Translations under genes and position numbers: made by a program
Shown: in pieces, positions 2,953-54,928 of the stretch
Position numbering within the stretch: position 1 is the first letter of the stretch
Layout of the letters: each line of letters starts with the position of its first letter
The notes under the pieces: model-generated
The model's input: only the letters and a program-made list of their open reading frames with translations
What the model was told of the DNA's origin: nothing
Database searches by the model: none
Assembly (NCBI GenBank): GCA_964342815.1
Contig: CAYFHS010000015.1
Location: forward strand, 247-64,246
DNA length: 64,000 nucleotides
Direction of reading: 5' to 3'
DNA from: an uncultured archaeon
GTDB lineage: Archaea; Thermoplasmatota; Penumbrarchaeia; JASLWR01

Positions 2953-2966
2953 GCTAAGGTGAGAGA

Positions 2967-6762: not shown

Positions 6763-7014
6763 GTTATTACTTCCTCAGGATTGAATCGTCGAAAAAGTAT
6801 CCTCTCATTATATTTATGATTATATGAGTATTTTCATTCATCTGTCATAATTGAATATTTTATGCCTTGTCAAAGGGAGTTCCGAGAATCACCATTAATC
6901 ATTCTTGGAGCGGGAGATATTGATTAACTTAACAGCAAAACATAAATAAAACAACAAGATTTCAACGTGGAAATCAGCGAGAACGGAATATTATCCATTA
7001 TTGTTGATTATAAT

Positions 7015-36837: not shown

Positions 36838-36860
36838 GGTGATTACCTACCAAGATGATT

Positions 36861-37529: not shown

Positions 37530-37554
37530 CCTCTTCGTGAATCACTTTCCGCCC

Positions 37555-38631
37555 CTAGCAGATCCTCGGTATGGGATCGCCAATTGGAGCTTCCACCATT
37601 CTCTTTCCCCCGATTACGGTTTTCATAACAACCCCCCGTACGCTCCTAGTGGCAGTACCAATGATCATTGCATCCTTTCCCTCGGGTCTCCTTTTTATAG
37701 CCTCCAGAACCTCCTGAGCCAATCCGGGGACTACTCCCATGACCACCTTGCCCTCGTTACCTATCTCAAGAGGGTCAAGGCCAAGCATTTCGCAGGCACT
37801 TTGCACCCCGCTCATTATAGGAACCGCTTCCTCATGGATGAGAATACCCAGCTTGGATTTTTCCGCCATCTCGTTCAGGGTGTTTGCAAGCCCACCTCTC
37901 GTGGGATCTTTCATTCCAACGACACCTCCCACCTTAAGCGAATCCTCTATCAATTTATTAAGGGGAGCCACGTCGCTGATTATCTCCGAGCTGAATTGAT
38001 AACCTTCCCTGAAGGACAGAAGCGCTATGCCGTGATCTCCCATGGTTCCAGTAACAATTATCGAATCTCCTTCCGACAGGTTGGAATCCTGCAACCAGTT
38101 ACCTTTGAAATCCCTGTGCTCCCTCACAGTATCAAAATTGCCGTCAAGCCATTCAGACCTTCGACCGATTCCGCTGGTGTTGATGACCATCTTGTCAATA
38201 GCGCCATTCTCCACCACTTTCGTGTCCCCGGTTATTATCGGTACCTGGGCAAGCTCGCATGTTCGGGCAATACTCTCAACTATCCGTTCTAACTCCGATA
38301 TGGAATAACCGTTCTCAATGACCATCGCAAGTGACAGGGCGAGGGGGTCCGCACCCATAACAGCCACGTCGTTCACGGTACCTGCTACTGACAGGCTGCC
38401 GATATCGCCTCCAGGAAAGAAGAGGGGTTTAACAGTATGTGAATCAGTGGTAAAAACAATCCCGTCAATGACAGCCCCGTCGTCCATTGCCCCCAGCGGA
38501 ACCTCTATCTTCGAGCTTTTCATTTCATCACACAATGGCTCCAGGTGATTGAGGAATCTTGAAGATATCAATTCCTGCATCACACGACCGCCTGCTCCGT
38601 GGGAGAGCATTATTCGTTCGTCATCTACCAT
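37555..38631 (-). CDS. hypE: Hydrogenase maturation protein HypE
   Basis: I(M)LSHGAGG near the N-terminus, a PurM-like fold, and a C-terminal PRIC motif (...GDPIPRIC). Confidence 0.92.
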   Translation of the reverse strand: MVDDERIMLSHGAGGRVMQELISSRFLNHLEPLCDEMKSSKIEVPLGAMDDGAVIDGIVFTTDSHTVKPLFFPGGDIGSLSVAGTVNDVAVMGADPLALSLAMVIENGYSISELERIVESIARTCELAQVPIITGDTKVVENGAIDKMVINTSGIGRRSEWLDGNFDTVREHRDFKGNWLQDSNLSEGDSIIVTGTMGDHGIALLSFREGYQFSSEIISDVAPLNKLIEDSLKVGGVVGMKDPTRGGLANTLNEMAEKSKLGILIHEEAVPIMSGVQSACEMLGLDPLEIGNEGKVVMGVVPGLAQEVLEAIKRRPEGKDAMIIGTATRSVRGVVMKTVIGGKRMVEAPIGDPIPRIC

Positions 38632-38635
38632 GTTT

Positions 38636-39724
38636 TCACCCGTAGCGACCGTATTTCAACATGATGTTGCACGACCCTTCGGAGGTAACCATGCATGGAC
38701 CAACAGGATTCTGCGGTGTACACACCTTTCCGAAAAGCGGGCATTCGTGGGAATGGATCAATCCTCTCAACACCTCCCCGCATCTGCAACCCTTGGGCTC
38801 TGTGAATTCCCTCCCCCTGAGTTCGAGTAGATCATCCTCAAACCTGACCCTTGCATCGTGCATTTCGTATTTCTTTCTGATACGCGAACCGCTAGCAGGT
38901 ATTACTCCGAAACCTCGCCAACTAACATCGCAGACCTCAAAAACCGTTTCCATTAGTTTGATGGCTTTAAGATTCCCATGAGACCTGACAGCTCTTCCAT
39001 AACCGTTTATCAATTTTCCCTCGCCCCTATTCACCTGAAGCGCCAGCTGGTATACTGCCATCATCAGGTCTAGGGGTTCGAAGCCGGTGATGACCTGGGG
39101 AACTCCGTATTCCGTTGAAAGGAACTCATATGGTGTTGAGCCGATAATGGTGGAAACATGTCCTGGTTCGATCAATCCGTCAAGTTTCAACTCACCCATC
39201 TCAACGATACCCTTCAGGGCAGGGGGGACCAATCGATGTGTGCACAATATCGAGAAATTCGAAGGTAAACCCTCTTTTCCGGATAGCACTGCAGCGGTGG
39301 ATGGTGCTGTGGTCTCGAATCCAATGGCCATGAAAACGACCTCGTGTCCGGGATTATCCCGTGCGATCACCACTGCATCGTCGATACTGTAGACCATTCT
39401 TACGTCCGCACCCCGGGATTGCATGTCAAAGAGTGTGAACTTTTCCCCGGGCACCCTCATCATATCGCCGAAGACAGTTATGGTCTTGCCCTTCTGGGCC
39501 AGGAGCATAACCTCCTCGATCTCTTCCGGAGGTGTAACGCAGACGGGACAACCGGGACCCTGACGGATATCCACACCAAGATCCAGGATCAATGAATCGA
39601 TTCCGTACCTGATGAAGGTATCCTGGTGCCCTCCACAAACATGCATAAGAGTTATATCGAGGTCCATTTCCTTCAATTTTGTTACGATCCGGTCGGCAAT
39701 TTCCTTGTCACGATACTTGAACAT
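38636..39724 (-). CDS. hypD: Hydrogenase maturation protein HypD
   Basis: MFKYRDKEIADRI...MHVCGGHQDT...GPGCPVCVTP...FETTAP... are HypD signatures. I moved the start to the ATG at 39724, overlapping the hypA stop by 17 nt. Confidence 0.92.
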   Translation of the reverse strand: MFKYRDKEIADRIVTKLKEMDLDITLMHVCGGHQDTFIRYGIDSLILDLGVDIRQGPGCPVCVTPPEEIEEVMLLAQKGKTITVFGDMMRVPGEKFTLFDMQSRGADVRMVYSIDDAVVIARDNPGHEVVFMAIGFETTAPSTAAVLSGKEGLPSNFSILCTHRLVPPALKGIVEMGELKLDGLIEPGHVSTIIGSTPYEFLSTEYGVPQVITGFEPLDLMMAVYQLALQVNRGEGKLINGYGRAVRSHGNLKAIKLMETVFEVCDVSWRGFGVIPASGSRIRKKYEMHDARVRFEDDLLELRGREFTEPKGCRCGEVLRGLIHSHECPLFGKVCTPQNPVGPCMVTSEGSCNIMLKYGRYG

Positions 39725-40157
39725 CGGGTACCTCCATTGTAATATTACGAATAATACATTCCTTGCCGGTGGTGATATTGGGTACGGCATTGCATACCGG
39801 ACATGAAATTAAGGGAAATATCTGATGAAAATCAGGTGTTTCCGAGTATTTTAGATCACCCTCATACCCGCAAACACATTGGATTGCGGCTTTTTTTTTC
39901 TTGACAATCAATTCTGCATTTTTCAGTATAGAAGAGCTTGCTGACGAGCCACAATTTCGATTAGGGTTCATAAGACTCGGATTTTCAAGCAAGACACCAT
40001 TTTTCAACACGTCAAAGGCGAATCCTAATTGTTCCTCTCCCAAAAATGTTAGTTCGCCTATTTCAAGAAATATTTTTGTTACCTCAGTCGCCCCATTCTT
40101 CTCTGCTTCAGCGATAACTGACCCCAGAATCTGGTTCATAACTGAGAGTTCATGCAC
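39708..40157 (-). CDS. hypA: Hydrogenase nickel-insertion protein HypA (with an internal insertion)
   Basis: MHELSVMNQILGSVIAEAEKNGA carries the MHE Ni-binding N-terminus. The zinc site is QCVCGYEG ... CPVCN; the first pair is CxC rather than the usual CxxC. An insert of about 35 aa (NPSLMNPNRNCGSSASSSILKN...) is present. Confidence 0.8.
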   Translation of the reverse strand: MHELSVMNQILGSVIAEAEKNGATEVTKIFLEIGELTFLGEEQLGFAFDVLKNGVLLENPSLMNPNRNCGSSASSSILKNAELIVKKKKAAIQCVCGYEGDLKYSETPDFHQIFPLISCPVCNAVPNITTGKECIIRNITMEVPDVQVS

Positions 40158-40180
40158 CTTTGATCCCTACCTCGCTTCTT

Positions 40181-40426
40181 TCATTCAATTTCACCGTGCT
40201 TTGATGCATCATCTTCCACAGAAAGAAGTTCGTCCCACAGTCGAAGCGTCACTTCTGCTTCTTTCCTGTCCATAACCTGGATCGCATAACCAGCATGAAC
40301 CAGAACGTATTGACCTACATCAACTTCGACCAAAGTAATGTTCACTGCCTTGATCAACCCACCGTAATCCACCTCTGCCCTATTTCCTGTTTTCTCCAAT
40401 ACTTTACCGGGGATCGCTAAACACAT
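40181..40426 (-). CDS. hypC: Hydrogenase assembly chaperone HypC
   Basis: MCLAIPGKVLE has the essential Cys-2. The start is placed at the ATG at 40426, not the upstream GTG at 40432. Confidence 0.85.
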   Translation of the reverse strand: MCLAIPGKVLEKTGNRAEVDYGGLIKAVNITLVEVDVGQYVLVHAGYAIQVMDRKEAEVTLRLWDELLSVEDDASKHGEIE

Positions 40427-40786
40427 GACCACTCTTAAAACTCTCTACCTATTTTAAGGTTATAACGAAATTGCCGACTATTGAAATCCTTCCAAGTAAA
40501 AAATAAGTTCGAATATTCCATTAATTCAGTTTTGCACAATCGATTGTTATTTTTCGGTATAAAGTCTGAATCCATACTGTCCGAAAATACACAATCGTTA
40601 AAACTAACCTCATTTCATCCAACAAATTATTTAAATTACGACATAAATGTTCAGCTTGTATATTGTTAAAGTAATCCAGGTTTATAATTGAATTTCCACT
40701 GCGTTGCTTACGGAGTACCGGTCACTTGAAATAAGCCGTGTGTTTGGTAAGTATATCAAAAAAATCCGTCGTAATGGAGGGGTAGA

Positions 40787-42814
40787 ATGTCAATTGATGA
40801 GAATTCCGAAAGCGAAGAGCCGAAAGTGGGTGTTTACGTTTGTGAGTGCGGCATCAATATCAGTGCCGTTGTAGACGTTCAGGATGTATCGAAATACAAC
40901 GAAACTCTTCAAAATGTCGTTACGAGCAAAGTTTACAAATACATGTGTTCCGACCCAGGACAGAACATGATCAAAAAGGATATCGAGGAATTGGGGCTTA
41001 ACAGGGTAGTGGTGGCATCTTGTTCACCCCGTATGCATGAACCGACTTTCAGGAACGCAGTGGCTGACGGCGGATTGAATCCATATCTCTTTGAAATGAC
41101 AAACATTCGCGAACATTGCTCCTGGGTACATAAAGATTCCCCGGAGGAAGCCACTGAAAAGGCAAAAGATCTCATCAGAATGGCAGTGGCAAAAGCAAGA
41201 TTGCTCGAGCCTTTGGAGAAATCCGAAGTACCGGTGGAACCAACAGCTGTTGTGATAGGTGCGGGTATAGCTGGGATACAGGCCGCCTTGAGCATAGCCG
41301 ATAACGGCTTCAAGGTATATCTCGTTGAAAGAACGCCCTCGGTGGGTGGACGGATGTCTCAACTGGATAAAACCTTCCCCACTCTGGATTGCTCAGCATG
41401 TATACTAACACCGCGCATGGTGGACGTGGCAAGACACCCGAACATTGAGTTGCTTACCTATTCCGAAGTCACGGAGGTAAGTGGTTACATAGGAAATTTT
41501 TCCGTGAAGATCACCAAAAAACCAAGGTATATCGATATTGAAAAATGTGTAGGCTGCGGACTATGTGCATCCGCCTGTCGTCTTACCGGAAGAATTCCGA
41601 ATGAATTCAACCTTGGGATGGATAAACGAGCCGTTCCATATATTCCTTTCCCTCAGGCCGTACCTTTGAAGTTCACCATTGATGGATCCCGTTGTCTCAT
41701 GGTTACCCGTGGAAAATGTGGAGATCATCCATTGTGTGCTGAAGCATGTGATGCCGATGCCATCGATTTCGAGCAAAAACCGGAAGAAATCGAACTCAAG
41801 GTAGGTACTATAGTAATCGCCTCGGGATTCGATATGTACGATCCCTCCCATAAGCCGGAGTACGGGTACGGAAAGTACAAAAACGTCATTACGGGTTTGG
41901 AGTTCGAAAGGCTGGTATCCTCCTCCGGACCAACCGGAGGTCACATTGAGATCGAGGGGGTCGAACCAAAAAACGTCGTCCTCATCCAGTGTGTCGGTTC
42001 CCGGGAAAGGGAAGAAGGCGGTAATTCTTATTGCTCGAGAGTTTGCTGCATGTATACCGCAAAACACGGACACCTTATCCACGAGAAAATACCTGATGCC
42101 AATATTACAATCTTATATACTGACGTTAGAGCTTTCGGAAAGGGATTCGAAGAATTCTACAACCGTGTGAAAGGCGAAGGAGTGAATTATGTAAAGAGAG
42201 AACTTGAGGAGCCCATCGAAGTAGTTGCCAAAAATCCCGAGGGGGATGATAATCTCCTGATGATAAAAAGTGGTGATGCACCCCCTCTGGAGGCTGACAT
42301 GGTGGTTCTTGCAACCGCCATCGTCCCAAGGGAGGATGCGAAGAAGAAGATCGGCCAGGTATTGAAGATATCTACCGGGGCAGACGGGTTCTTTCTGGAG
42401 GCCCATCCCAAATTACGCCCCATCGATACGATCACCAGCGGTATATTTTTAGCCGGATGCGGTCAAGGTCCGAAAGATATTCCCGATACTGTCGCCCAGG
42501 CCTCTGGCGCGGCTAAACGAGCGGCAATACCTCTTGCCCAGGGACGAGTCGAACTCGAACCTTTGAAATCGTTTCTGGTGGATAAAAACTGCGACGGATG
42601 CGCATACTGTATCGATCCCTGTCCGTACAATGCGCTCACGCTCATCGAATACATGAAAAAGGGAGATATGAAAAAAACCGTACAGGTGACCGAAGCTCTA
42701 TGCCAGGGTTGCGGGGTATGCCAGGCCACCTGTCCCAAGCAGGGTATAGTTGTTAAGGGCTTCAAATTGGCCCAGTTGAATGCCATGGTCGATGCGGCTC
42801 TGGAGGTGGCATAA
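40787..42814 (+). CDS. hdrA: Heterodisulfide reductase subunit A-like flavoprotein, full length
   Basis: VGVYVCECGINIS..., FAD fingerprint VVIGAGIAGIQAAL, CSACILTPRM, inserted ferredoxin CVGCGLCASAC, LIQCVGSRE...YCSRVCCMYTAKH, and a C-terminal 2x[4Fe-4S] domain (CDGCAYCIDPCP, CQGCGVCQATCP). Confidence 0.9.
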   Translation: MSIDENSESEEPKVGVYVCECGINISAVVDVQDVSKYNETLQNVVTSKVYKYMCSDPGQNMIKKDIEELGLNRVVVASCSPRMHEPTFRNAVADGGLNPYLFEMTNIREHCSWVHKDSPEEATEKAKDLIRMAVAKARLLEPLEKSEVPVEPTAVVIGAGIAGIQAALSIADNGFKVYLVERTPSVGGRMSQLDKTFPTLDCSACILTPRMVDVARHPNIELLTYSEVTEVSGYIGNFSVKITKKPRYIDIEKCVGCGLCASACRLTGRIPNEFNLGMDKRAVPYIPFPQAVPLKFTIDGSRCLMVTRGKCGDHPLCAEACDADAIDFEQKPEEIELKVGTIVIASGFDMYDPSHKPEYGYGKYKNVITGLEFERLVSSSGPTGGHIEIEGVEPKNVVLIQCVGSREREEGGNSYCSRVCCMYTAKHGHLIHEKIPDANITILYTDVRAFGKGFEEFYNRVKGEGVNYVKRELEEPIEVVAKNPEGDDNLLMIKSGDAPPLEADMVVLATAIVPREDAKKKIGQVLKISTGADGFFLEAHPKLRPIDTITSGIFLAGCGQGPKDIPDTVAQASGAAKRAAIPLAQGRVELEPLKSFLVDKNCDGCAYCIDPCPYNALTLIEYMKKGDMKKTVQVTEALCQGCGVCQATCPKQGIVVKGFKLAQLNAMVDAALEVA

Positions 42815-44071
42815 ATGAAGATAGGCGTTTATGTCTGTGAATGCGGCATCAATATTGCTGCAACCGTTGACGTGGAAAAGGTTGTCGAATACGTCAAAGA
42901 TATACCAAAAGTCGCAGTTACAAGATATTACAAATATATGTGCTCGGACCCCGGCCAGACCCTTATAAAGAAAGATATTGAGGAGCTTGGCCTTGACCGT
43001 GTTGTTGTTGCATCTTGCTCTCCAAGGATGCATGAGCTCACCTTCAGGACCGTTTGCAAGGAAGCGGGTCTGAATCCATTCTGTTTCGAGATGGCAAATA
43101 TACGTGAGCAGTGTTCCTGGGTTCACAAGGACAAAGAGAGAGGTACTGAAAAGGCGATTTCACTGGTAATGTCTGCAGTGGCACGGGCCGCCCTACTGGA
43201 GCCTTTGCAGATGAAAAAAGTTGGAGTAGTACCGAATGCAATGGTCATTGGCGCAGGTATCGCAGGAATACAGGCGGCATTGGACATAGCTGATACCGGA
43301 TACAAGACCTACCTCGTGGAGCGGACCGCAAGCGTTGGCGGCAGGATGTCTCAACTGGATAAAACATTCCCCACGCTGGACTGTTCAGCATGTATATTGA
43401 CCCCGAAGATGGTGGATGTTGCGAGGCACCCGAATATAGAGTTGTTAACTTATTCCGAAGTGGAGAACATTGACGGTTACGTGGGTAATTTCAAGGTCCG
43501 GGTGAGAAAGAGAGCCCGCTCAGTAGACGAGTCTAAATGTACCGGTTGCGGAGTTTGTACGGAGAACTGCCCCATATCGCTCCAAATCCAATTACAGGAT
43601 AAACCCGATGAAGCTCCAGTTGTGAGAGATCGGGAATATATTGAGGAACTGATTGAGAAGAACTCCTATCACGAGGGACCACTTGTACAGATCATGTTGG
43701 AAGTAAACGATAAATACCGATATCTACCTAGAGATGTTCTTGAATATCTATCGTATAAACTTGAGATACCCATGACCACGATTTATCGTGTGGCAACTTT
43801 CTACAAGTCCTTCAGTCTGGAAAAAAGAGGGAAATTTCACATAAAGATATGTCTGGGTACTGCGTGTCATGTAAGAGGGGCGAGGAACATACTCGATAGG
43901 GTAAAGAGTTCCATATCCGGTGCTGAGGAAGGTTTGTTTTCCATCGAGACAGTCAACTGTCTTGGTGCTTGTGCTCTGGGTCCAATTATGGTGATAAATG
44001 ATGAGGTTCACGGTAACGTGACAGTAGATAATGTAGATAAAATAATTTCTAACCTGGGGGTGAATGAATGA
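42815..44071 (+). CDS. Fusion protein: N-terminal half of an HdrA paralog plus a NuoE/HoxE-type thioredoxin-like [2Fe-2S] domain
   Basis: Residues 1 to about 250 are roughly two-thirds identical by eye to the N-terminal half of the upstream hdrA (IGVYVCECGINIA..., MVIGAGIAGIQAAL, CSACILTPKM, CTGCGVCTENCP). The protein then switches to LPRDVLEYLSYKLEIPMTTIYRVATFYKSF...ICLGTACHVRGA...VNCLGACALGPIMVIN, the NuoE pattern. ATG 42815 directly follows the hdrA stop. Confidence 0.8.
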   Translation: MKIGVYVCECGINIAATVDVEKVVEYVKDIPKVAVTRYYKYMCSDPGQTLIKKDIEELGLDRVVVASCSPRMHELTFRTVCKEAGLNPFCFEMANIREQCSWVHKDKERGTEKAISLVMSAVARAALLEPLQMKKVGVVPNAMVIGAGIAGIQAALDIADTGYKTYLVERTASVGGRMSQLDKTFPTLDCSACILTPKMVDVARHPNIELLTYSEVENIDGYVGNFKVRVRKRARSVDESKCTGCGVCTENCPISLQIQLQDKPDEAPVVRDREYIEELIEKNSYHEGPLVQIMLEVNDKYRYLPRDVLEYLSYKLEIPMTTIYRVATFYKSFSLEKRGKFHIKICLGTACHVRGARNILDRVKSSISGAEEGLFSIETVNCLGACALGPIMVINDEVHGNVTVDNVDKIISNLGVNE

Positions 44072-45933
44072 ATAAGTTGCAAAACCCCGGAGAATTGGAA
44101 AAGCTGAAAAGGACCATCCAAGATGGTAGAGACCCCAAAAAACCTATAATAACAATATGTGGCGGGACCGGATGCAAAGCCTCCGGATGCGATGATATAA
44201 TTGGCATCTTTAAAAATGAGATCGAGAAACAAAACCTGGGAAATAAGGTGGACATTCGAATTACCGGATGCCATGGATTTTGCGAAAAAGGCCCTCTCGT
44301 TGTCATTCATCCCAAAAAGATATGCTATCCCAGGGTAAAAGGAGAGGATGTTTCGAGAATTATTTCAGAGACGGTAATGAACGATACGGTGATTGATGAA
44401 CTGCTCTATGTCGATCCAATCTCAGGTGAAAAAATAACCTATGAATATGACATACCATTCTACAAAAAGCAGACGAGGACAATTTTCGGAAGTAATGGCC
44501 ATATCGACCCCACCAGTATTGAAGATTATATTGCCATCGGTGGATATTCCGCCCTTTCGAAGACGCTAAGCAATATGACCCCAGGTAGCGTTATCGAGGA
44601 AATAAAGAGTTCAGGGTTGAGAGGAAGGGGAGGTGGAGGATTTTCTACAGGTAGAAAATGGGCGACCGCAGCCAAATTCGATACGGAGAAGAAATACATA
44701 TTATGCAATGCGGACGAGGGAGATCCCGGGGCATACATGGATCGTAGCGTTCTCGAAGGAAACCCCCACAGCGTGATCGAAGGTATGATCATCGGCGCAT
44801 TCGCAGTTGGGTCCAATGACGGTTATATCTATGTCAGAGCCGAATACCCGCTGGCCGTCTCTCATTTCATAAAAGCCCTGGAAACTGCAAGAGAATATGG
44901 GCTCCTGGGCACGAACATATTGGGAAGCGGATTTGATTTTGACATAAGGGTCTATCAGGGTGGTGGCGCCTTCGTTTGCGGAGAATCGTCAGCTCTCATT
45001 CAATCCATCGAAGGAAAGGTGGGCGAACCCAGAGCAAAGCACATCCACGCTACGGAAAAAGGCCTATGGGGATACCCAACCGTATTGAACAACGTCGAAA
45101 CCTGGGCCAACGTTCCACTGATAATCAACAAGGGTGCCGATTGGTATGCTGGTATAGGTACCGATGGGAGTAAAGGAACGAAAATATTTTCTCTCGTCGG
45201 GAAGATAAACAATACCGGTCTGGTGGAAGTCCCCATGGGTATTACCATAAGGGAAATAGTATATGATATCGGCGGGGGAATACCCGAAGGAAAAAAATTC
45301 AAAGCAATTCAAACCGGCGGCCCCTCCGGTGGATGCATTCCCGAATCACTGATCGACATGGCAATCGATTTCGACGAATTAACAAAAGCCGGCTCCATGA
45401 TGGGATCCGGGGGAATGATCGTGATGGATGAAGGGACCTGTATGGTTGATGTCGCCAAATATTTTATCGAATTCAACCTCGATGAGTCCTGCGGCAAATG
45501 CGTGTCTTGCAGGGAAGGCAATGCACGGATATTGGAAATACTTGAAGACATCTGTCAAGGCAATGGCAATGAAAATTCGATACCCATGCTGGAGGAATTT
45601 GCAGATCATGTGAAGGACCTCTCGCTGTGTGGGCTTGGAAAGACTGCTCCAAATCCGGTTCTTACGACACTGCGGTATTTCAAAGACGAATATCTTGCCC
45701 ATATCGAGAAAAAAGAGTGCCCCGCGAAGACCTGCAAGCCACTGATACGCTATGTCATAGACCCGGATGCATGCAAAGGCTGCAGAGCCTGTGCGCGAAA
45801 ATGTCCGGTTGAGGCGATTACCGGTGAAAAGAAAGAACCACATGTTATCGATGGAAATATTTGTACAAAATGCGGCACGTGTATCGAGACATGTAAATTC
45901 AATTCTATAATAATTGAAACGGGGGGGGTATAA
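44068..45933 (+). CDS. NuoF/HydB-type NAD(H)- and FMN-binding iron-sulfur flavoprotein
   Basis: N-terminal thioredoxin-like [2Fe-2S] domain (ITICGGTGCKASGC...ITGCHGFCEKGPLV). SGLRGRGGGGFSTGRKW is the FMN motif. NADEGDPGAYMDR is the NADH site. ESCGKCVSCREG is an N3-type cluster. The C-terminus has 2x[4Fe-4S] (CKGCRACARKCP, CTKCGTCIETC). It overlaps the upstream stop (ATGA). Confidence 0.88.
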   Translation: MNKLQNPGELEKLKRTIQDGRDPKKPIITICGGTGCKASGCDDIIGIFKNEIEKQNLGNKVDIRITGCHGFCEKGPLVVIHPKKICYPRVKGEDVSRIISETVMNDTVIDELLYVDPISGEKITYEYDIPFYKKQTRTIFGSNGHIDPTSIEDYIAIGGYSALSKTLSNMTPGSVIEEIKSSGLRGRGGGGFSTGRKWATAAKFDTEKKYILCNADEGDPGAYMDRSVLEGNPHSVIEGMIIGAFAVGSNDGYIYVRAEYPLAVSHFIKALETAREYGLLGTNILGSGFDFDIRVYQGGGAFVCGESSALIQSIEGKVGEPRAKHIHATEKGLWGYPTVLNNVETWANVPLIINKGADWYAGIGTDGSKGTKIFSLVGKINNTGLVEVPMGITIREIVYDIGGGIPEGKKFKAIQTGGPSGGCIPESLIDMAIDFDELTKAGSMMGSGGMIVMDEGTCMVDVAKYFIEFNLDESCGKCVSCREGNARILEILEDICQGNGNENSIPMLEEFADHVKDLSLCGLGKTAPNPVLTTLRYFKDEYLAHIEKKECPAKTCKPLIRYVIDPDACKGCRACARKCPVEAITGEKKEPHVIDGNICTKCGTCIETCKFNSIIIETGGV

Positions 45934-45934
45934 A

Positions 45935-47707
45935 ATGGTCATGATCGAGATCAACGGGACGAAGTTCGACGCCCCGAAAGGCAAAATGGTTCTCGAAGTT
46001 GCGAAGGAAAATAAAATCGACATTCCAACGCTTTGTTATCATAAAGCTCTTCCACCCTACGGGGCCTGTCAGCTCTGCGTTGTGGAGATTCTGAAGAACG
46101 GATGGTCCAAACTTGCAACATCCTGTACCCTACCGGTGATGGAGGGTTTGAAGGTTGAGACCGATTCCGAGCGTGTTATAAAAAGAAGAAAAATGAATAT
46201 AGAACTTATGCTGGGTCGCTGCCCGGAAGAAGAAGTTCTCCTGAAACTGGCCCAGGAGTATAATGTTGGAAAACCAAGATTCAAGGAAATGGATGACGAT
46301 TGCATCCTATGCGGATTGTGTGTCAGAATGTGCGAGCGGATGGGTATGGAGGCAATTAGCTTTACCGGTCGTGGCAAGGACCGTGATCTGGGAACGCCTT
46401 TCAAGGAAAAATCAGACGTCTGCATGACCTGCGGTGCCTGTTTATACGTCTGCCCCACATCGAGATTTTCAAGTGAGGAAGTCGAAAGTATTAGTGGAAA
46501 CAAACCACTGCCGATTCCTGCGGAATTCAACGCAGGAATGGAACCCCGCCCAGTAATAAGTATTCCTTTTCCCCAGGCGGTACCAAAAATACCTGTTATA
46601 GACAGGGAACGGTGTGTCCATTTTCAGACGGGTAATTGTAAGACATGCGAAACTTTTTGCGAACCGGGAGCCATCGATTACGAGCAGGAAGATGAGATAT
46701 TGGATCTTGATATAGGTTCTATTATCGTCGCTACGGGTTTCGATCTCTTCGATCCATCGATAAAACCTCAGTATGGCTATGGGAAATTCTCGAATGTGCT
46801 CACCGGCCTGGAATTCGAGCGGCTGGTTTCGGCGTCCGGTCCGACTGAAGGCCACGTTGAACTCAATGGTAAAGAACCCAAAAGGGTGGTGTTCATACAG
46901 TGCGTAGGTTCGAGAGACAAGGAGGGCCATGAATACTGTTCACGTGTTTGTTGCATGTACACTGCTAAACACGCTCATCTCGTGGGAGACAAGGTACCCG
47001 GTGCGGAGATAACAATTTTTTATACCGATGTAAGGGCTTTTGGGAAGGGATTCGAAGAGTTCTATGTCAGGGTACAGGAGGAAGGCGTGGATTACAGGAG
47101 AAGAGAATTGGACGATTTTATCGAGGTTGTCCAGAAGGATGATAGTGATAGTTTAGTTGTTAGGGCGGAGGGTCATCCGGATATCGAAGCTGATCTGGTT
47201 GTGTTGGCCACGGCCATCGAGCCGAGAAAGGATGCCGGCAAGATGATGAATATTCTGAACATCACCCAGAGCGGCGACGGTTTCATGCTGGAGGCTCACC
47301 CGAAACTACGACCTGTGGATACCTTCACAGACGGTGTTTTCCTGGCAGGATGCTGCCAGGCACCGCGGGATATACCGGATACGGTGGCACAGGCGAGTGG
47401 GGCCGCCGCAATGGCATGCAGTATTCTTTCGAAGGATAATCTCGAGATCGATCCTCTGACGTCTTATGTGGACGAGGCATTATGTCGGGGCTGCGGTTTC
47501 TGTGTCGAGGTCTGCCCGTACGATGCCCTTTCGCTGGAAGAAGTGAACCGGTTCGGACATCTGGTTGATGTGGCAAAGGTCAACGAGGCGCTTTGCAAGG
47601 GTTGCGGTTCATGTGTAGGCACCTGCTTGTCGGGTGCGATACAGGTTAGAGGATATAATGATAAACAGATACATGCCGCCATCAGCGCACTGGGGGTGAC
47701 CAAATGA
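45935..47707 (+). CDS. Fusion protein: NuoG-N-terminal-type [2Fe-2S]/[4Fe-4S] domain plus the C-terminal half of an HdrA paralog
   Basis: N-terminus MVMIEINGTKFDAPKG...IPTLCYHKALPPYGACQLCVVEI, CILCGLCVRMCE and CMTCGACLYVCP. From ISIPFPQAVPKIPVID onward it is collinear with the second half of hdrA (IVATGFDLFDP, GLEFERLVSASGPT, FIQCVGSRD..YCSRVCCMYTAKH, FLAGCCQAPRDIPDTVAQASGAA, C-terminal CRGCGFCVEVCP/CKGCGSCVGTC). The start is the ATG at 45935 after a G-run; the track ORF starts at TTG 45914. Confidence 0.8.
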   Translation: MVMIEINGTKFDAPKGKMVLEVAKENKIDIPTLCYHKALPPYGACQLCVVEILKNGWSKLATSCTLPVMEGLKVETDSERVIKRRKMNIELMLGRCPEEEVLLKLAQEYNVGKPRFKEMDDDCILCGLCVRMCERMGMEAISFTGRGKDRDLGTPFKEKSDVCMTCGACLYVCPTSRFSSEEVESISGNKPLPIPAEFNAGMEPRPVISIPFPQAVPKIPVIDRERCVHFQTGNCKTCETFCEPGAIDYEQEDEILDLDIGSIIVATGFDLFDPSIKPQYGYGKFSNVLTGLEFERLVSASGPTEGHVELNGKEPKRVVFIQCVGSRDKEGHEYCSRVCCMYTAKHAHLVGDKVPGAEITIFYTDVRAFGKGFEEFYVRVQEEGVDYRRRELDDFIEVVQKDDSDSLVVRAEGHPDIEADLVVLATAIEPRKDAGKMMNILNITQSGDGFMLEAHPKLRPVDTFTDGVFLAGCCQAPRDIPDTVAQASGAAAMACSILSKDNLEIDPLTSYVDEALCRGCGFCVEVCPYDALSLEEVNRFGHLVDVAKVNEALCKGCGSCVGTCLSGAIQVRGYNDKQIHAAISALGVTK

Positions 47708-47724
47708 GCGAGGAAGTACAAGCT

Positions 47725-47765
47725 GAGTTCGAACCAGACATCGTTGCCTTTCTATGTAATTGGTG
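47725..47765 (+). repeat. Direct repeat copy 1 (41 nt, 37/41 identical to 47901-47941)
   Basis: gagttcgaaccagacatcgttgcctttctatgtaattggtg versus gagttcgaaccaaatatcgtagcctttctatgtaactggtg. The offset is 176 nt. Confidence 0.9.
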
Positions 47766-47820: not shown

Positions 47821-47894
47821 TTCGGAAATGAAGAAACTCGAGGGAGCCTGCTCGAAAATTGTTACTCACTTCGTTCGCAGAAGGAGGTGGTTAT

Positions 47895-48320
47895 TTGAGT
47901 GAGTTCGAACCAAATATCGTAGCCTTTCTATGTAACTGGTGCTCGTATGCAGGAGCCGATCTTGCAGGTACATCGAGAGCCCAATACCCACCGAACGTTA
48001 AGGTCATACGTGTGATGTGTTCGAGCCGCATCAATCCGTTATTCCTGATAAACACACTTCAGCAAGGGGCTGACGGTGTACTGATCGGCGGCTGCCACCC
48101 TGGTGATTGTCATTATGTCCAGGGCAATTACTTCGCCAGGAGGAAGTTCGGCCTCATAAAGAGTCTTATGGAGCAAGTCGGCGTCGATCCGGCAAGAGTG
48201 AAAATGGCCTGGGTATCCGCCTCGGAGGGATCAAAGTTTGCTGAATTGATCCAGGAGCTTTCGGACGAATTGCGGGAGATTGGTCCCATGGAACAGTTCA
48301 AAAGGAGGGATGAGCTGTGA
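47895..48320 (+). CDS. mvhD: MvhD-type iron-sulfur protein (methyl-viologen-reducing hydrogenase delta subunit family)
   Basis: (M)SEFEPNIVAFLCNWCSYAGADLAGTSRAQYPPNVKVIRVMCSSRINPLFL...GADGVLIGGCHPGDCHY. The likely start is TTG at 47895, 7 nt after AAGGAGGTG. The track ORF starts at 47859. Confidence 0.85.
   Translation: MSEFEPNIVAFLCNWCSYAGADLAGTSRAQYPPNVKVIRVMCSSRINPLFLINTLQQGADGVLIGGCHPGDCHYVQGNYFARRKFGLIKSLMEQVGVDPARVKMAWVSASEGSKFAELIQELSDELREIGPMEQFKRRDEL
47901..47941 (+). repeat. Direct repeat copy 2 (functional mvhD 5' end)
   Basis: See copy 1. This copy continues in frame into the intact MvhD sequence CSYAGADLAGTSR. Confidence 0.9.
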
Positions 48321-49285
48321 TTACGGAAATTCGAGAGGCGGTGAAGGAATATCTGGCCCGTGATGATGTAAAATATGCCATTGGCTACGAAAAGGGAACC
48401 TACGGCTCAAAGGTCGCTCCGTCATTTGCATTTTCTCCGAAGGACGTTGATAAATTCATCTTTTCACCATTGTGCATCAATAACCTGGCCGTCTATCCGC
48501 TCCTAGAAGAAAAATTACCTTTACCAAGGGGACAGACAGCCGAGAAATCAAAGATTGTTGTTGTCCTGAAAGGATGTGACTCAAAGGCCATGCTCCAAAT
48601 AATCAACGAAAAGGGATTGTCCCGTGATGATATCATTATTATCGGAGTGTCCTGCTCCGGAGTCATAGACCCGAAAAAGCTTCAGGCAAAGTTCCCAAAT
48701 TCTCCAATCGACGCTGCCTATAAAGACGGTAAGTTCCTGCTGCTGGTCAATGGGGAAGAACAGCATATTTCAAAAGATGAACTCATCTTTGAGAAGTGCA
48801 AGGTATGTGAAAATCCCAATCCGGTTATCTACGATCTGCTTGTGGGAGAAAAGGTTGAACCAAAGGTCGACGATTTTACCGACGTTACAGCGAGGAAGGA
48901 CGATAAACCGGAGGAAAGATGGAACCACTGGGGACAGGAGTTCGACCGTTGTATCCGATGTTACGCCTGCAGAGGTGTTTGCCCCATGTGCTACTGCAAG
49001 AAGTGTATTGCAGAAGAGTTGAGACCGGCATGGATCGGACGTTCGGTAAATTTGTCAGAAAATACCGCTTGGAACCTGATCAGGGCCTACCACCTTGCAG
49101 GAAGATGCATCGATTGCGGTGAATGCGAGAGGGTTTGTCCCATGGACCTCCCATTACGGGAACTGAACCGAAAGATGGCAAAAGATGTTTTTGAGTTATT
49201 CGATTACAAGGCCGGAATCAACCTGGACGGGAAACCGGTTTTAGCTGTCTACAAACCCGATGACCCGGAGGATTTTATATTGTAG
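48317..49285 (+). CDS. 4Fe-4S dicluster protein (Flx/sulfhydrogenase-associated type) with an uncharacterised N-terminal domain
   Basis: CIRCYACRGVCPMCYC and CIDCGECERVCP are cluster motifs. The N-terminal domain includes VVVLKGCDSKAMLQI. The GTG start overlaps the mvhD stop (GTGA). Confidence 0.6.
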   Translation: MITEIREAVKEYLARDDVKYAIGYEKGTYGSKVAPSFAFSPKDVDKFIFSPLCINNLAVYPLLEEKLPLPRGQTAEKSKIVVVLKGCDSKAMLQIINEKGLSRDDIIIIGVSCSGVIDPKKLQAKFPNSPIDAAYKDGKFLLLVNGEEQHISKDELIFEKCKVCENPNPVIYDLLVGEKVEPKVDDFTDVTARKDDKPEERWNHWGQEFDRCIRCYACRGVCPMCYCKKCIAEELRPAWIGRSVNLSENTAWNLIRAYHLAGRCIDCGECERVCPMDLPLRELNRKMAKDVFELFDYKAGINLDGKPVLAVYKPDDPEDFIL

Positions 49286-49293
49286 GTGATAGC

Positions 49294-50304
49294 ATGATAT
49301 TGCCAAAGAACAAACTGAACCATTGGCTGGCCGCCCTGAAGAAACATGATCTGTTCACCCCTACCCGGAACGGTGACGTTGTTCTTTTCAGTCCCTTTTC
49401 CGGAGAAAAAGATGTCATTCTGGAGGGGAGGCCAACCTTGGGCCCCAAGGGTATATTGTTTCCCCAGACCGAAACCCTTTTTACATATCGTATCGGAAAA
49501 AATGCAGAAATTGTGGATGCTGCAGACAAGCGAACGAAGAGGATCATATTCGGCATCCGTCCCTGTGATGCCAGGGCGTTCTCGGTTCTGGATAATCTGT
49601 TCAAGGATGAATACCAGGACACTTATTACCTAAATGCGAGAGAAGCCACGACCCTGGTTGGTCTGACCTGTTCCCAGCCGAATACAAACTGTTTCTGTAC
49701 CTCCCTGTCCGGCAGCCCAGGTGAAAGAGACGACGTAGACATTCTGCTCACCGACCTCGGTGACGGATATTACGTTGATATCGTAACCGAAAAGGGACAA
49801 ATTTTGGTGGACGAGAACTATCAGCTCTTCTCGGAGGTCTCCGACAGTGACGAAAGCAGGAAAGAGGCAATAATAGCGGATGCGGAAAAAAGCATTTCAA
49901 GAATGATCGATTCCACCGACCTGCCCAACAAATTAGGGAAGATTTTCGAGAGTGACTATTGGAATAAGACCGCTATGAAATGTATCGGCTGCGGGACCTG
50001 CACATACCTCTGCCCAACCTGCTATTGTTTCGATATACAGGATGAGATTCAGGGTATAAAGGGTAAGAGAGCGCGAATGTGGGATTCATGCATGTACCCC
50101 GAATATACCATACACACGTCCGGCCACAATCCCAGGCCTGCCAGGATGAATAGAATTCGGAACAGGGTATATCACAAGTTCAAGTACTACCATGATAATT
50201 TTGACGTCCATCTCTGCATAGGATGCGGCAGATGCGTGGACAAATGTCCCGTGAACATAGATATAATCGACATAATAACCCATGTGAAGGAGGGAGCACA
50301 ATGA
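49294..50304 (+). CDS. AsrA / sulfhydrogenase-beta (HydB) / FlxB-C-like iron-sulfur protein
   Basis: CIGCGTCTYLCPTCYCFDIQDE...MWDSCMYPEYT...CIGCGRCVDKCPVNIDI is the characteristic AsrA/HydB-beta pattern. Confidence 0.7.
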   Translation: MILPKNKLNHWLAALKKHDLFTPTRNGDVVLFSPFSGEKDVILEGRPTLGPKGILFPQTETLFTYRIGKNAEIVDAADKRTKRIIFGIRPCDARAFSVLDNLFKDEYQDTYYLNAREATTLVGLTCSQPNTNCFCTSLSGSPGERDDVDILLTDLGDGYYVDIVTEKGQILVDENYQLFSEVSDSDESRKEAIIADAEKSISRMIDSTDLPNKLGKIFESDYWNKTAMKCIGCGTCTYLCPTCYCFDIQDEIQGIKGKRARMWDSCMYPEYTIHTSGHNPRPARMNRIRNRVYHKFKYYHDNFDVHLCIGCGRCVDKCPVNIDIIDIITHVKEGAQ

Positions 50305-51227
50305 GCAATCCCTATGTACCCCGTCTTGCCAAAGTTGTTGAGATACGCAAGGAAGTGGGGGGTCCAAGGCCGATTAAGACCTTCAAGATGGAATTCAATG
50401 ACCCGAATATAAGAAATTCTTTCGAGTTCAAACAGGGTCAGACCGCCATGCTGAGCGTTCTCGGTGTCGGGGAGAGTATGTTTGCCATATCGTCTCCCTC
50501 TACTCGAAAAGGATACATCGAGTGCAGCGTGATGAACGCAGGGGGGAAAAACACAACAGCCCTTCACCAACTGGAAGTGGGTGATACGGTTGCTATCCGC
50601 GGCCCTTACGGCAATCATTTTCCATTGGATGATTGGAAGGGAAAGAACCTGATATTCATCGGAGGAGGGATTGGGCAGGCGCCTTTGAGATCAGTCTATA
50701 TGACTGCTTTGGATCGAAGGGATGAGTTTGGGGATATCCTCATCATTTACGGGGCGCGGACCTCCGACGACCTGGCTTTCAAATACGAACTTGATGAACT
50801 GGAGAAACGGGAGGATGTTGACCTCAGATTATGTCTCGACTGGAAATTCGGCCCGGGGGGAAAGATACAGGAAGAGGCGGAAGCAGGATGGAAGGTTATC
50901 AACACCGAGGAACCTGCTTGTACACTGGATGAGGATTCATTATGTTCAAAGTTCACCTGTTTCGTGCCAGAATTGGTGCTGGTGATGGCCCCCCGTTCAG
51001 AAAACACCATTGCCTTGACCTGCGGGCCGCCCATAATGATCAAGTTCGTGGTTCAGAATTTATCGAAACTGGGATTCCACCCGCAGCAGATATATACCAC
51101 AATGGAGATGAGAATGAAATGCGGGATTGGTAAATGTGGTCGATGTAATATCGGAAATCTTTATGTATGCAAGGACGGCCCCGTTTTCACCAATGAAGAA
51201 TTGAAAAATGTACAAGGGGAGAGGTGA
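50301..51227 (+). CDS. AsrB / sulfhydrogenase-gamma / FlxA-like FAD-NAD(P)-binding [2Fe-2S] oxidoreductase (PyrK fold)
   Basis: MSNPYVPRLAKVVEI..., a ferredoxin-reductase-like barrel (GQTAMLSVLGVGESMFAISS), NAD motif LIFIGGGIGQAPLRS, and a C-terminal MKCGIGKCGRCNIG cluster. The ATG overlaps the upstream stop (ATGA at 50301-50304). Confidence 0.8.
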   Translation: MSNPYVPRLAKVVEIRKEVGGPRPIKTFKMEFNDPNIRNSFEFKQGQTAMLSVLGVGESMFAISSPSTRKGYIECSVMNAGGKNTTALHQLEVGDTVAIRGPYGNHFPLDDWKGKNLIFIGGGIGQAPLRSVYMTALDRRDEFGDILIIYGARTSDDLAFKYELDELEKREDVDLRLCLDWKFGPGGKIQEEAEAGWKVINTEEPACTLDEDSLCSKFTCFVPELVLVMAPRSENTIALTCGPPIMIKFVVQNLSKLGFHPQQIYTTMEMRMKCGIGKCGRCNIGNLYVCKDGPVFTNEELKNVQGER

Positions 51228-51232
51228 TATAG

Positions 51233-51646
51233 ATGGATGAATACGAGCCAAAGATCATAGCTTTCTGCTGTAACTGGTGCAGTTATGCCGGAGCGGACCT
51301 CGCCGGAACGTCGAGAACGCAATATCCGCCAAATGTCAGGATCATACGGGTAATGTGCTCGGGTATGGTACACCCTAATCTCGTTATTGAAGCCCTAACA
51401 AAGGGAGCGGATGGTGTGCTCATATGCGGATGTCATATTGGGGACTGCCACTATATCGAAGGGAACCACAGAACCGAGAAAAGGGCGGAGGCTATTGAGC
51501 TGATGCTGGAGGATTTTGGTCTTGAATACGAGAGATTCAGGCTGGAATGGGTATCGGCCAGCGAGGGAGCAAAATTTGCCCGAGTCGTAGGTGAAATGGT
51601 GGAGGATCTGAAAATGGTCGGACCCAGTCCTTACGCACCGATGTAA
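51233..51646 (+). CDS. mvhD: Second MvhD-type iron-sulfur protein (FlxD-like)
   Basis: MDEYEPKIIAFCCNWCSYAGADLAGTSRTQYPPNVRIIRVMCSGMVHPNLV...GADGVLICGCHIGDCHY. Confidence 0.85.
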   Translation: MDEYEPKIIAFCCNWCSYAGADLAGTSRTQYPPNVRIIRVMCSGMVHPNLVIEALTKGADGVLICGCHIGDCHYIEGNHRTEKRAEAIELMLEDFGLEYERFRLEWVSASEGAKFARVVGEMVEDLKMVGPSPYAPM

Positions 51647-51670: not shown

Positions 51671-52180
51671 GTGAGCCTTATGGAAAACACGGACGTCCCG
51701 GATTATTTTAGCAGACCCATCCTGGTATTCGGCTGCGGGAATGATCTACTGGGTGATGACGGATTCGGCCCGGCAGTGATGGATTATTACCACAAAAAAC
51801 ATGAGATCCCGGATTTCGCTTGCGTTATGAACGTGGGAACCAGCATACGGAAGATCCTGTTCGACATCGTGATAGGTGAATCCAAACCTGACAAGATAGT
51901 GGTGATCGATGCTTTGGATGTCGGAAAAAAGGCCGGAGAGGTTTTCGAGCTGCCGTTGGATGATATTCCAGAAATCAAGATAGATGATTTTTCGATGCAT
52001 CAGGTACCTACCTCGAACCTCCTAAAGGAACTGAGAGATTACTGCAGTGTGGAGATAGTGATACTCGCTTGCCAGATAGAGAACATTCCCGAAATGGTCC
52101 AACCGGGTCTTTCGGTCAGTGTAAGCAAAGCGATCCCTGTAATGTGTGAGATGATCCATAAAATAATATACGCAGAGTAA
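51671..52180 (+). CDS. [NiFe]-hydrogenase maturation endopeptidase (HycI/FrhD/HoxW family)
   Basis: ILVFGCGNDLLGDDGFGPAV...VVIDALDVGKKAGEV...FSMHQ are conserved Asp/His metal-ligand motifs of the large-subunit C-terminal protease. The start is GTG at 51671 or ATG at 51680. Confidence 0.8.
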   Translation: MSLMENTDVPDYFSRPILVFGCGNDLLGDDGFGPAVMDYYHKKHEIPDFACVMNVGTSIRKILFDIVIGESKPDKIVVIDALDVGKKAGEVFELPLDDIPEIKIDDFSMHQVPTSNLLKELRDYCSVEIVILACQIENIPEMVQPGLSVSVSKAIPVMCEMIHKIIYAE

Positions 52181-54923: not shown

Positions 54924-54928
54924 ATCAT

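Follow-up and report, generated by a model that had tools for sequence, protein, structure and literature searches.

A conserved HdrA–Bfu hybrid cassette in which an HdrA-like protein is split at its inserted ferredoxin domain

The DNA analyzed here is a 64 kb stretch of contig CAYFHS010000015.1 from an uncultured archaeon of the Thermoplasmatota, the whole of which we call the window, and its subject is a triad of adjacent genes (genes 1–3) located directly downstream of a full-length hdrA gene. Four families of flavin-based electron bifurcation are known, and the triad joins pieces of two of them, the HdrA-type and the HydBC/Bfu-type modules. Gene 1 encodes the N-terminal half of an HdrA-like protein, here called HdrA', fused to a NuoE domain; gene 2 encodes a NuoF protein of the HydB/BfuB type; and gene 3 encodes a minimal BfuA/NuoG-N-type domain followed by the remaining part of HdrA' (Table 1). 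The triad constitutes an HdrA–Bfu hybrid cassette that is made from two known kinds of module, is conserved and widespread, and goes under generic names in annotations. The open reading frame (ORF) listing of the window returned hdrA and genes 1–3 at exactly the coordinates of the original prediction, and the stop/start overlaps or near-adjacency claimed for the three genes were confirmed in the DNA: the ATG of gene 1 directly abuts the hdrA stop codon, an ATGA overlap joins genes 1 and 2, and a single nucleotide separates the stop of gene 2 from the ATG of gene 3. The gene 3 stop is overlapped by what was ancestrally the start of mvhD, and the remaining downstream junctions are overlaps or gaps of 5–8 nt (mvhD/flxC GTGA; flxB/flxA ATGA). 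A promoter and terminator scan, of a type ill-suited to archaeal DNA, gave the same counts as shuffled sequence.

The two HdrA pieces are readily identified as such. Residues 2–258 of gene 1 are 68% identical to residues 13–270 of the upstream HdrA (E 3e-126), close to the two-thirds originally estimated by eye, and align to residues 5–260 of the solved HdrA 5odc_A (E 1.8e-111). Residues 161–585 of gene 3 are 53% identical to residues 254–670 of the upstream HdrA across 432 residues (E 7e-151), and the C-terminal part matches 8rvv_A and 5odc_A with E values of 1e-112 to 1e-118. For conservation we used relatives drawn from searches of 5.8 billion proteins and clustered at 90% identity, which contained at least 116 full-length proteins with the architecture of gene 1 and at least 110 with that of gene 3, at identities of 48–100%. 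In gene 1, C8, C10, C43, C68, C190, C193, C242, C245, C248 and C252 are conserved in all 116 relatives and C100 in 97% of them; the Cys ligands of the N-terminal [4Fe-4S] cluster and the cross-subunit Cys of the TLDCSxC motif, both characteristic of HdrA, are present. In gene 3, C227, C238, C242, C323, C335, C339, C340 and eight C-terminal Cys are invariant among the 110 relatives, and C235 is present in 109. The C-terminal 2x[4Fe-4S] (C517–C527, C554–C564) is invariant and mvhD adjoins the gene, as would be expected of an HdrA that docks MvhD. The thioredoxin-reductase-like FAD domain is complete only when both proteins are taken together, with GAGIAGIQ in gene 1 and CVGSRD...CSRVCC and the rest of the fold in gene 3, and FAD binding is predicted for the pair. 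Because the NCBIfam scores of the split protein (383.7 and 436.4 bits), like that of its full-length neighbor, fall below the 1100-bit equivalog cut-off for methanogen HdrA/HdrA2, we classify both by sequence as HdrA-like proteins, not as orthologs of methanogen HdrA.

The inserted ferredoxin domain of HdrA normally carries both of its Cys motifs on one chain. In the window, by contrast, the first motif, CTGCGVCTENCP (gene 1 residues 242–253), closes the HdrA part of gene 1, and the second, CVHFQTGNCKTCETFC (gene 3 residues 227–242), comes after the BfuA-like domain, leaving the two on different polypeptides with ~900 residues of Bfu parts between them. The HydABC-like module therefore sits inside the ferredoxin domain in gene order. 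This bears out the proposed split at the ferredoxin insertion and refines the accompanying claim that an NADH module lies between two HdrA halves, which holds for the order of the genes; at the protein level, the module interrupts the inserted ferredoxin domain and is not placed between flavoprotein halves. In the solved Mvh-Hdr complex this domain hands low-potential electrons to ferredoxin (PMC9012536), and the cryo-electron microscopy structure of class II benzoyl-CoA reductase (BCRII) identifies it as the low-potential output to the tungsten subunits (bioRxiv 10.64898/2026.04.10.717634).

The NADH module is made up of parts from all three genes. In gene 1, the predicted NuoE fusion is upheld by a Pfam match of residues 276–414 to PF01257 (1e-39); among solved structures this domain is best matched by the HydC chains of bifurcating hydrogenases (7p5h_C, 2.5e-38) and also matches 9mqx_C, and C346, C351, C382 and C386 are invariant in the 116 relatives. 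Gene 3 was predicted to consist of a NuoG-N domain and a collinear HdrA C-half, and its first 78 residues indeed match Fer2_4 and are followed by 2x[4Fe-4S] (Fer4). Residues 4–177 are collinear with the 247-residue BfuA chain 9mqx_A (3.5e-40) of the electron-bifurcating tungsten aldehyde oxidoreductase Wor-Bfu; like that chain, the gene 3 domain does without a His-ligated cluster, and all 12 of its Cys are invariant in the 110 relatives. When gene 3 was modeled with AlphaFold2 from an alignment containing 90 relatives, the mean predicted local distance difference test (pLDDT) score was 83; the N-terminal part of the model superposes on 9mqx_A with a root-mean-square deviation of 1.4 Å over 180 columns, and HdrA chains rank first in a Foldseek search with the model (410–438 aligned columns).

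Gene 2 was originally assigned to the NuoF/HydB type, in agreement with its Pfam domains (N-terminal 2Fe-2S_thioredx, Complex1_51K, SLBB, NADH_4Fe-4S and a C-terminal 2x[4Fe-4S]) and with its end-to-end alignment to the HydB chain of an electron-bifurcating NiFe-hydrogenase (7t2r_B, 5.7e-237), in which every cluster ligand is in register. It bears the Bfu motifs DEGDPGAYMDR at position 216 and GGGAFVCGESSAL at position 298, which agree with the patterns DEGDPGA[FY]MDR and GAFVCGE in Supplementary Figure 10 of PMC9304861. H545, C458, C551, C556 and eight C-terminal Cys are kept in 10/10 sequences, and the ligands as a whole are conserved in nine syntenic relatives, with the exception of the first N-terminal Cys pair. 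In the window this pair is a CxxxxC at residues 31–36 (44158–44175) of the N-terminal thioredoxin-like [2Fe-2S] domain, as in A. mobile HydB, and in eight of the nine relatives a GTCG-type sequence with one Cys (or CC) takes its place. Members of the Bfu family have been defined as sharing a BfuBC core, which holds FMN and six clusters, and motifs distinct from those of non-bifurcating NuoF homologs, and genes 1 and 3 supply the BfuC [2Fe-2S] and the BfuA [2Fe-2S]/[4Fe-4S] chain that belong to the same definition. All Bfu-specific features listed in that work are seen in gene 2 and the NuoE domain of gene 1; judged by these sequence criteria, the NADH module is a Bfu member (PMC9304861). The initial description of a NuoE/NuoF/NuoG-N-type and HydABC/Bfu-type module is thereby narrowed: the motifs and the extra-cluster ligands speak for the bifurcating HydBC/Bfu type and not for the complex-I type. 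Ferredoxin- and NAD(H)-dependent bifurcating activity is a prediction for the triad from its sequence.

Table 1. Coordinates of the triad, its domains and neighboring features in the window.
Feature	Coordinates	Strand	Description
hdrA, full-length (HdrA-like flavoprotein)	40787-42814	+	675 aa; NCBIfam HdrA2/HdrA models match whole length, 831.9 bits against the equivalog cut-off of 1100
gene 1	42815-44071	+	418 aa
HdrA' N-half (gene 1 residues 1-258)	42815-43588	+	N-terminal Fe-S domain, FAD-binding GxGxxG piece, first CxxCxxCxxxCP motif of inserted ferredoxin domain
NuoE/HydC/BfuC-type domain (gene 1 residues 276-418)	43640-44071	+	thioredoxin-like [2Fe-2S] domain; PF01257 match
gene 2 (HydB/BfuB-type NuoF)	44068-45933	+	621 aa; predicted FMN/NADH site, N-terminal [2Fe-2S], [4Fe-4S], His/Cys extra cluster, C-terminal 2x[4Fe-4S] ferredoxin-docking domain
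gene 3	45935-47707	+	590 aa; alternative TTG start at 45914
minimal BfuA/NuoG-N-type domain (gene 3 residues 1-177)	45935-46465	+	[2Fe-2S] and 2x[4Fe-4S], without His-ligated cluster
HdrA' C-part (gene 3 residues 191-590)	46505-47707	+	second Cys motif of inserted ferredoxin domain, rest of thioredoxin-reductase-like FAD domain with [4Fe-4S], C-terminal 2x[4Fe-4S]
MvhD copy 1	47859-48320	+	PF02662 FlpD, 1.2e-53; true start probably TTG near 47895
FlxC-like Fe-S protein	48317-49285	+	HdrC-like dicluster domain; Fer4_17, Fer4_8, weak FrhB_FdhB_C
FlxB-like (AsrA/ShyB-type) Fe-S subunit	49294-50304	+	PF17179, 1.2e-34; NCBIfam ShyB/AsrA-type below cut-off
FlxA-like (AsrB/ShyC-type) FAD/NAD(P)H subunit	50301-51227	+	NAD_binding_1, FAD_binding_6, DHODB_Fe-S_bind; NCBIfam hydrogenase gamma type
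MvhD copy 2 (FlxD equivalent)	51233-51646	+	PF02662, 5.5e-54
hydrogenase maturation protease gene	51671-52180		closes operon
216-aa ORF between protease gene and mvhA	52581-53231	-	faint Lrp/AsnC ligand-domain match, E 1e-3
MvhA, [NiFe] hydrogenase large subunit	53478-55130 (ORF)	-	group 3c-type; 80% identical to L008 homolog
MvhG, small subunit	54929-55882	-	group 3c-type; VhuG family 4.2e-65; Oxidored_q6
hypF-hypB-hypE-hypD-hypA-hypC	34594-40432	-	complete maturation cluster, divergent, upstream of operon

The architecture is not peculiar to the source genome. The exact gene 1 protein occurs on nine contigs from separate marine metagenome assemblies (ENA ERZ27286875, Tara ERZ907987 and Logan ERR868455). 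By source name, the fused relatives come from archaea (Thermoplasmata, Methanobacteriota, Promethearchaeota, Heimdallarchaeaceae, Theionarchaea, Methanofastidiosia and Syntropharchaeia) as well as bacteria (Spirochaetales, Gemmatimonadota, Dehalococcoidia, Chloroflexota and Planctomycetota). Of the cluster-ligand Cys covered by the alignments, 15 in gene 1 and 32 in gene 3, none is kept in fewer than 97% of the relatives. Judging from its sequences, the fused family is taxonomically broad and moderately deep, the latter because the fused form of gene 1 gives ~6–8 clusters at 50% identity. The gene-neighborhood search found the triad to recur across archaea and bacteria, being syntenic in 12 loci of different phyla that include metagenome-assembled genomes (MAGs) of Thermoplasmata, Asgard archaea, Spirochaetales, Gemmatimonadota, Dehalococcoidia and Planctomycetota. 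A separate pattern scan of genome contigs was swamped by ordinary HdrA because its patterns derived from the N-half, and its true fused matches were only L004–L006. In the databases the fused proteins carry generic names such as 'NuoE', '(2Fe-2S)-binding protein' or 'HdrA'.

Natural variants of the cassette show its parts both separated and joined further. In a Dehalococcoidia MAG (L092; DUFC01000032, 4386–18014), a four-gene form lies behind hdrC and hdrB and consists of a 273-aa HdrA N-piece, a 150-aa NuoE, NuoF and gene 3, the N-piece and NuoE being separate genes in the same order as in gene 1. Behind it lie a second, short nuoG-E-F set without Bfu extras and two methylene-tetrahydrofolate reductase (MTHFR) genes, a context that suggests a link between the cassette and methylene-tetrahydrofolate reduction. 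At the other extreme, the 870-aa protein P0191 (4 member sequences) is a single chain in which residues 2–266 of gene 1 (64% identity) are followed by residues 2–583 of gene 3 (52%); it has no NuoE, only about eight residues join the HdrA part to the complete gene 3 homolog, and its gene lies behind hdrC-hdrB. Since its C-terminal part nests among ordinary gene 3 sequences in a neighbor-joining tree (distance 0.13; a crude method), P0191 seems to have lost NuoE and NuoF secondarily and in frame rather than to be an ancestor. Three further proteins (P0197, P0200 and P0175) have a gene 3-like protein fused to a second complete HdrA, and at L090 the partner protein is cut down to one ferredoxin motif and NuoE.

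The partners of the triad vary as well. In six of the 12 loci, gene 1 is immediately preceded by a full hdrA, and four loci have hdrCB or an HdrD-like gene instead of a second HdrA. The order of the window, namely hdrA, triad, mvhD, flxC-B-A, mvhD and then mvhG-A, is largely repeated in the Thermoplasmata loci L005/L008 and in L087, and up to the end of the contig in L084 from Spirochaetales. In the Asgard locus L091 (Promethearchaeota MAG JBHLLX010000001), flxCBA and an HdrA with an NfnB/GltD-like insert precede the triad, which is followed by mvhD, mvhGA and HdrA::MvhD. This upstream HdrA (2504–5818) carries ~430 aa of NfnB/GltD-like sequence (Fer4_20 + Pyr_redox_2) right after its first ferredoxin motif, the very site of the split, and in this it resembles HdrA9–11 of ANME-1; gene 1 of this locus (5843–7093) is uncalled in the database record. 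In the Gemmatimonadota locus L085, the triad stands between hdrC-hdrB and mvhD-mvhG-mvhA. In L086 and L088 it is preceded by three acyl-CoA dehydrogenases, an HdrD-like protein and etfB-etfA, with neither mvhD nor a hydrogenase beside it; the HdrD-like protein in the 8 kb upstream is of the Fer4+CCG type, and the same stretch holds a small ORF (69 or 117 aa) with no family match. In all, hdrCB is present in L085, L089 and L092, in the last of these together with the four-gene form and MTHFR.

Several features of the window surrounding the triad also have counterparts at these loci. An mvhD gene follows gene 3 in L005, L084, L085, L087 and L091, and the FlxC-like gene is syntenic in L005, L084, L087 and L091. 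The window mvhAG genes (53478–55882) are divergent from the operon, whereas mvhGA directly follows the cassette in L085, L087 and L091. Between gene 3 and the intact mvhD there is a 42-nt direct repeat (47704–47765 and 47900–47941; 90% identical, 176 nt apart). Its first copy lies in the frame opened by the ATG of the ATGA at the end of gene 3 and encodes the MvhD N-terminus MSEEVQAEFEPDIVAFLCNW, followed by unrelated sequence and a stop; the intact gene restarts near 47895, downstream of a GGAGGTGG site. From its sequence, this repeat looks like the scar of a partial duplication or recombination. The mvhA ORF extends ~55–68 residues beyond the N-terminal end of the homolog-matched region and overlaps mvhG; translation probably begins at the internal Met of MGKTLTIAPV. 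The 216-aa ORF between the protease gene and mvhA may encode a small regulator. A tblastn search of the whole 64 kb window with HdrB, HdrC and HdrD-like queries found no HdrB, and its sole result was a weak HdrC-like match in the FlxC-like gene (to the HdrC of L092, E 1e-4). No aldehyde oxidoreductase (AOR) gene was found in or near the operon, and no fatty-acid oxidation genes were seen adjoining it. Elsewhere in the window, Rfam reports a 110-nt tRNA (7015–7124, + strand; 42.6 bits) that was missed by ARAGORN; its extra length suggests that it contains an intron, which would fit an archaeal (Thermoplasmata-like) origin.

We consider it rather probable that the triad is a covalently wired HdrA–Bfu tandem module, which in the window would link the pools of H2, NAD(P)H, NADH and ferredoxin. 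The sequences directly show how the domains are made up, that the ligands are conserved, that the genes are syntenic and that fused and four-gene forms exist; from this we infer the module's assembly in trans, its pairing with HdrA, the direction of electron flow and the substrates as follows. Genes 1–3 would form one assembly in which the HdrA-type FAD flavoprotein HdrA' is composed of two polypeptides, as homology and the natural fusions suggest. Its inserted ferredoxin domain would be built in trans from the CxxCxxCxxxCP motif of gene 1 and the Cx7CxxCxxxC motif of gene 3, and would continue covalently into the BfuA-type chain of gene 3 ([2Fe-2S] and two [4Fe-4S]), from which electrons could pass to the [4Fe-4S] beside the FMN in gene 2. 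Gene 2 and the NuoE domain of gene 1 would make up a HydBC/BfuBC core that carries FMN, has a site for NAD(H) and offers ferredoxin a dicluster domain for docking. Because the inserted domain, which is the low-potential exit in solved Hdr, is fused to the Bfu chain, the low-potential branch of the HdrA' FAD would be hard-wired to a second bifurcating or confurcating flavin/cluster site, placing the two modules in series.

The upstream full-length HdrA is the probable dimer partner of HdrA', giving a heterodimer. This pairing is proposed because HdrA acts as a dimer with a cross-subunit Cys ligand (PMC9012536), because BamE of BCRII is a fused HdrA dimer, and because of the fusions of gene 3-like proteins to a second HdrA. 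The two MvhD adaptors would fit two inputs, the MvhAG [NiFe] hydrogenase and the FlxABC-like NAD(P)H module, and the likely chemistry would be a reversible transfer of electrons between the pools of H2, NAD(P)H, NADH and ferredoxin. As a matter of speculation, NAD(P)+ would be a plausible high-potential acceptor, reached through the HdrC-like FlxC/FlxB/FlxA chain. In the forward direction, H2 or NAD(P)H would drive a two-stage reduction of NAD+ and ferredoxin; in the backward direction, which the ETF/acyl-CoA dehydrogenase context points to in some bacteria, NADH and reduced ferredoxin would help a high-potential donor to make H2.

Other explanations have to be weighed against this proposal. 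The window DNA is metagenomic and a small duplication scar lies just after gene 3, as might be expected if genes 1–3 were a chimeric assembly or a decayed hdrA pseudogene beside an unrelated nuoEFG-like operon. This was ruled out as exceedingly improbable, however, by the identical gene 1 protein on contigs of independent assemblies, the gene order shared across phyla, the ligand Cys conserved in more than 100 relatives of each fused protein and the intact start/stop codon overlaps. It is also conceivable, although in our view unlikely, that the NuoEF(G) part does not bifurcate and simply passes electrons from NADH into an otherwise ordinary HdrA, similar to FlxABCD or the N-module of complex I, leaving the HdrA FAD as the only bifurcating site. 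NADH-dependent Hdr systems are indeed known (FlxABCD-HdrABC and MetFV-HdrABC-MvhD; PMC5861303), 68% of the clusters of isolated BamGHI are reduced by NADH alone (bioRxiv 10.64898/2026.04.10.717634), and the variable first N-terminal Cys pair among gene 2 relatives would be in keeping with such a role. Gene 2 nevertheless keeps all the features that are unique to bifurcating members and never occur in Nqo/Hox/Fdh-type NuoF, namely the motifs DEGDPGAYMDR and GAFVCGE, the additional His/Cys cluster and the cluster domains at both termini (PMC9304861). Moreover, the entry would lie at the low-potential exit of HdrA and not at the usual MvhD/C-terminal input, and Flx already provides the operon with an NAD(P)H module of its own.

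Quite improbable, in our estimate, is a cassette that works mainly in reverse, with the Bfu core confurcating NADH and reduced ferredoxin and the HdrA' FAD then confurcating the result with a high-potential electron from thiols, ETF or acyl-CoA oxidation, so as to yield H2 or another mid-potential product in a syntroph-type device for hard oxidations. In its favor are the three acyl-CoA dehydrogenase genes that, with those for an HdrD-like protein and EtfBA, immediately precede the triad in L086/L088, the hdrCB and mvhDGA genes of L085, the reversibility of Bfu and Hdr modules and the fact that BCRII runs confurcation and then bifurcation. It is, however, a variant in direction of the tandem module and not a different machine; no sequence feature fixes the direction, and the window operon has no fatty-acid oxidation genes beside it.

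The proposal of a wired HdrA–Bfu tandem itself must contend with several observations. Wiring in series through the low-potential branch is without experimental precedent, and BCRII, the only machine with HdrA and HydBC to have been solved, sends electrons from its HydBC module by way of an MvhD-like adaptor into the C-terminal and not the inserted ferredoxin domain (bioRxiv 10.64898/2026.04.10.717634). On its 4.6 kb contig, P0191 has hdrCB upstream and no NuoEF beside it, so the BfuA-like insert may sometimes work without the BfuBC core. The first Cys pair of gene 2 is unconserved in eight of nine relatives, and the N-terminal [2Fe-2S] may therefore be ligated differently or lost across much of the family. 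L086 and L088 are without MvhD or an obvious mid-potential partner, and as the window has no HdrB, the high-potential acceptor is a guess. Neighbor-joining trees of the N-halves and C-halves, a crude method with biased sampling, did not gather the split forms into one clade (best bipartition Jaccard 0.56 and 0.71), and in them the split forms intermix with canonical HdrAs, the neighboring HdrAs included. An AlphaFold2 model of concatenated genes 1 and 3 speaks neither for nor against their reassembly, since MAFFT misplaced the gene 3 family under gene 1 and the gene 3 half has a pLDDT below 50.

A wider conclusion could tentatively be drawn, although we hold it to be less likely than not: the cassette may be a widespread, previously unrecognized stacking of two bifurcation sites, a two-stage redox 'voltage converter' in which a HydBC/Bfu site is attached directly to the low-potential branch of an HdrA-type FAD. 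Such a stacked module would join varied partners, including [NiFe] hydrogenase, Flx, HdrBC, ETF/acyl-CoA dehydrogenases and MTHFR, in carriers that include Asgard archaea, Thermoplasmatota and Dehalococcoidia. The joining of HdrA and HydBC/Bfu has so far been shown for one specialized enzyme, BCRII (2026 preprint); the cassette links the same two families differently, covalently and at the ferredoxin exit of HdrA, and is far more widely distributed than BCRII. If true, it would be a second, topologically different case of hierarchical module coupling, and could explain very low or tightly balanced ferredoxin potentials in some H2- or NADH-limited anaerobes. In carriers such as Asgard archaea and marine Thermoplasmata, Mvh/Hdr/Flx genes routinely serve to infer H2 or syntrophic metabolism, and because the pieces are named generically, reconstructions probably misread these loci as an NADH dehydrogenase and an ordinary Hdr. 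Recognizing the triad as a unit would thus provide a better marker for genome-based redox models, and should be of moderately high interest to specialists in anaerobic bioenergetics. The original prediction had cautioned that the pattern, though not recognized as described, might already be annotated in MAG surveys. The genes are indeed annotated there, generically, and a full-text literature search that included exact phrases found no description of the split and fused architecture; subscription papers lay mostly outside this search, and a prior description is possible.

To our knowledge, BCRII is the only characterized enzyme that has an HdrA-type FAD module and a HydBC/Bfu-type NADH/ferredoxin module in one complex. 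Like the cassette, BCRII (Bam(BC)2DEFGHI of Geobacter metallireducens, called Bam-Bfu in PMC9304861) combines the two modules with an MvhD-like adaptor, and its pseudo-dimeric BamE invites comparison with the HdrA/HdrA' pair proposed for the window. However, BamGHI enters the C-terminal ferredoxin domain of BamE through BamI and BamF, whereas in the window the BfuA chain is spliced into the inserted ferredoxin domain, the HdrA is split over two genes and its N-piece carries a fused NuoE. BCRII also has a tungsten AOR subunit, BamB, with BamC, in place of which the window has MvhAG and Flx as partners. HdrA9, HdrA10 and HdrA11 of ANME-1 (PMC9012536) resemble the cassette in having a module linked to pyridine nucleotides at the same site of HdrA, but their insert is one NfnB/GltD-like domain of ~430–500 aa within a single polypeptide, compared with a three-part HydABC-like module over three ORFs. 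Among Bfu enzymes, the nearest solved relatives are NiFe-HydABCSL (7t2r) and Wor-Bfu (9mqx). The cassette shares with type 1 Bfu (for example Nfn-Bfu/StnABC and F420-Bfu) a full BfuBC core and a BfuA with an extra redox domain for a 'third' electron route; in the cassette, however, the fused domain is half of a second bifurcating flavoprotein whose other half is fused to BfuC, and the table of Bfu types has no Hdr-fused class (PMC9304861). The operons of Desulfotignum phosphitoxidans listed as nuoEFG-mvhD, nuoGEF-mvhD-hdrA and hdrA-mvhD-nuoEFG-...-etfAB, for which no split HdrA is mentioned (PMC4046663), may be cultured examples. With MvhAGD-HdrABC and FlxABCD-HdrABC, finally, the window has in common MvhA, MvhG, two MvhD, FlxABC-like proteins and HdrA-type flavoproteins in or beside the operon, and it differs from them in having no HdrB (CCG) in its 64 kb and an extra, split HdrA that carries a Bfu module.

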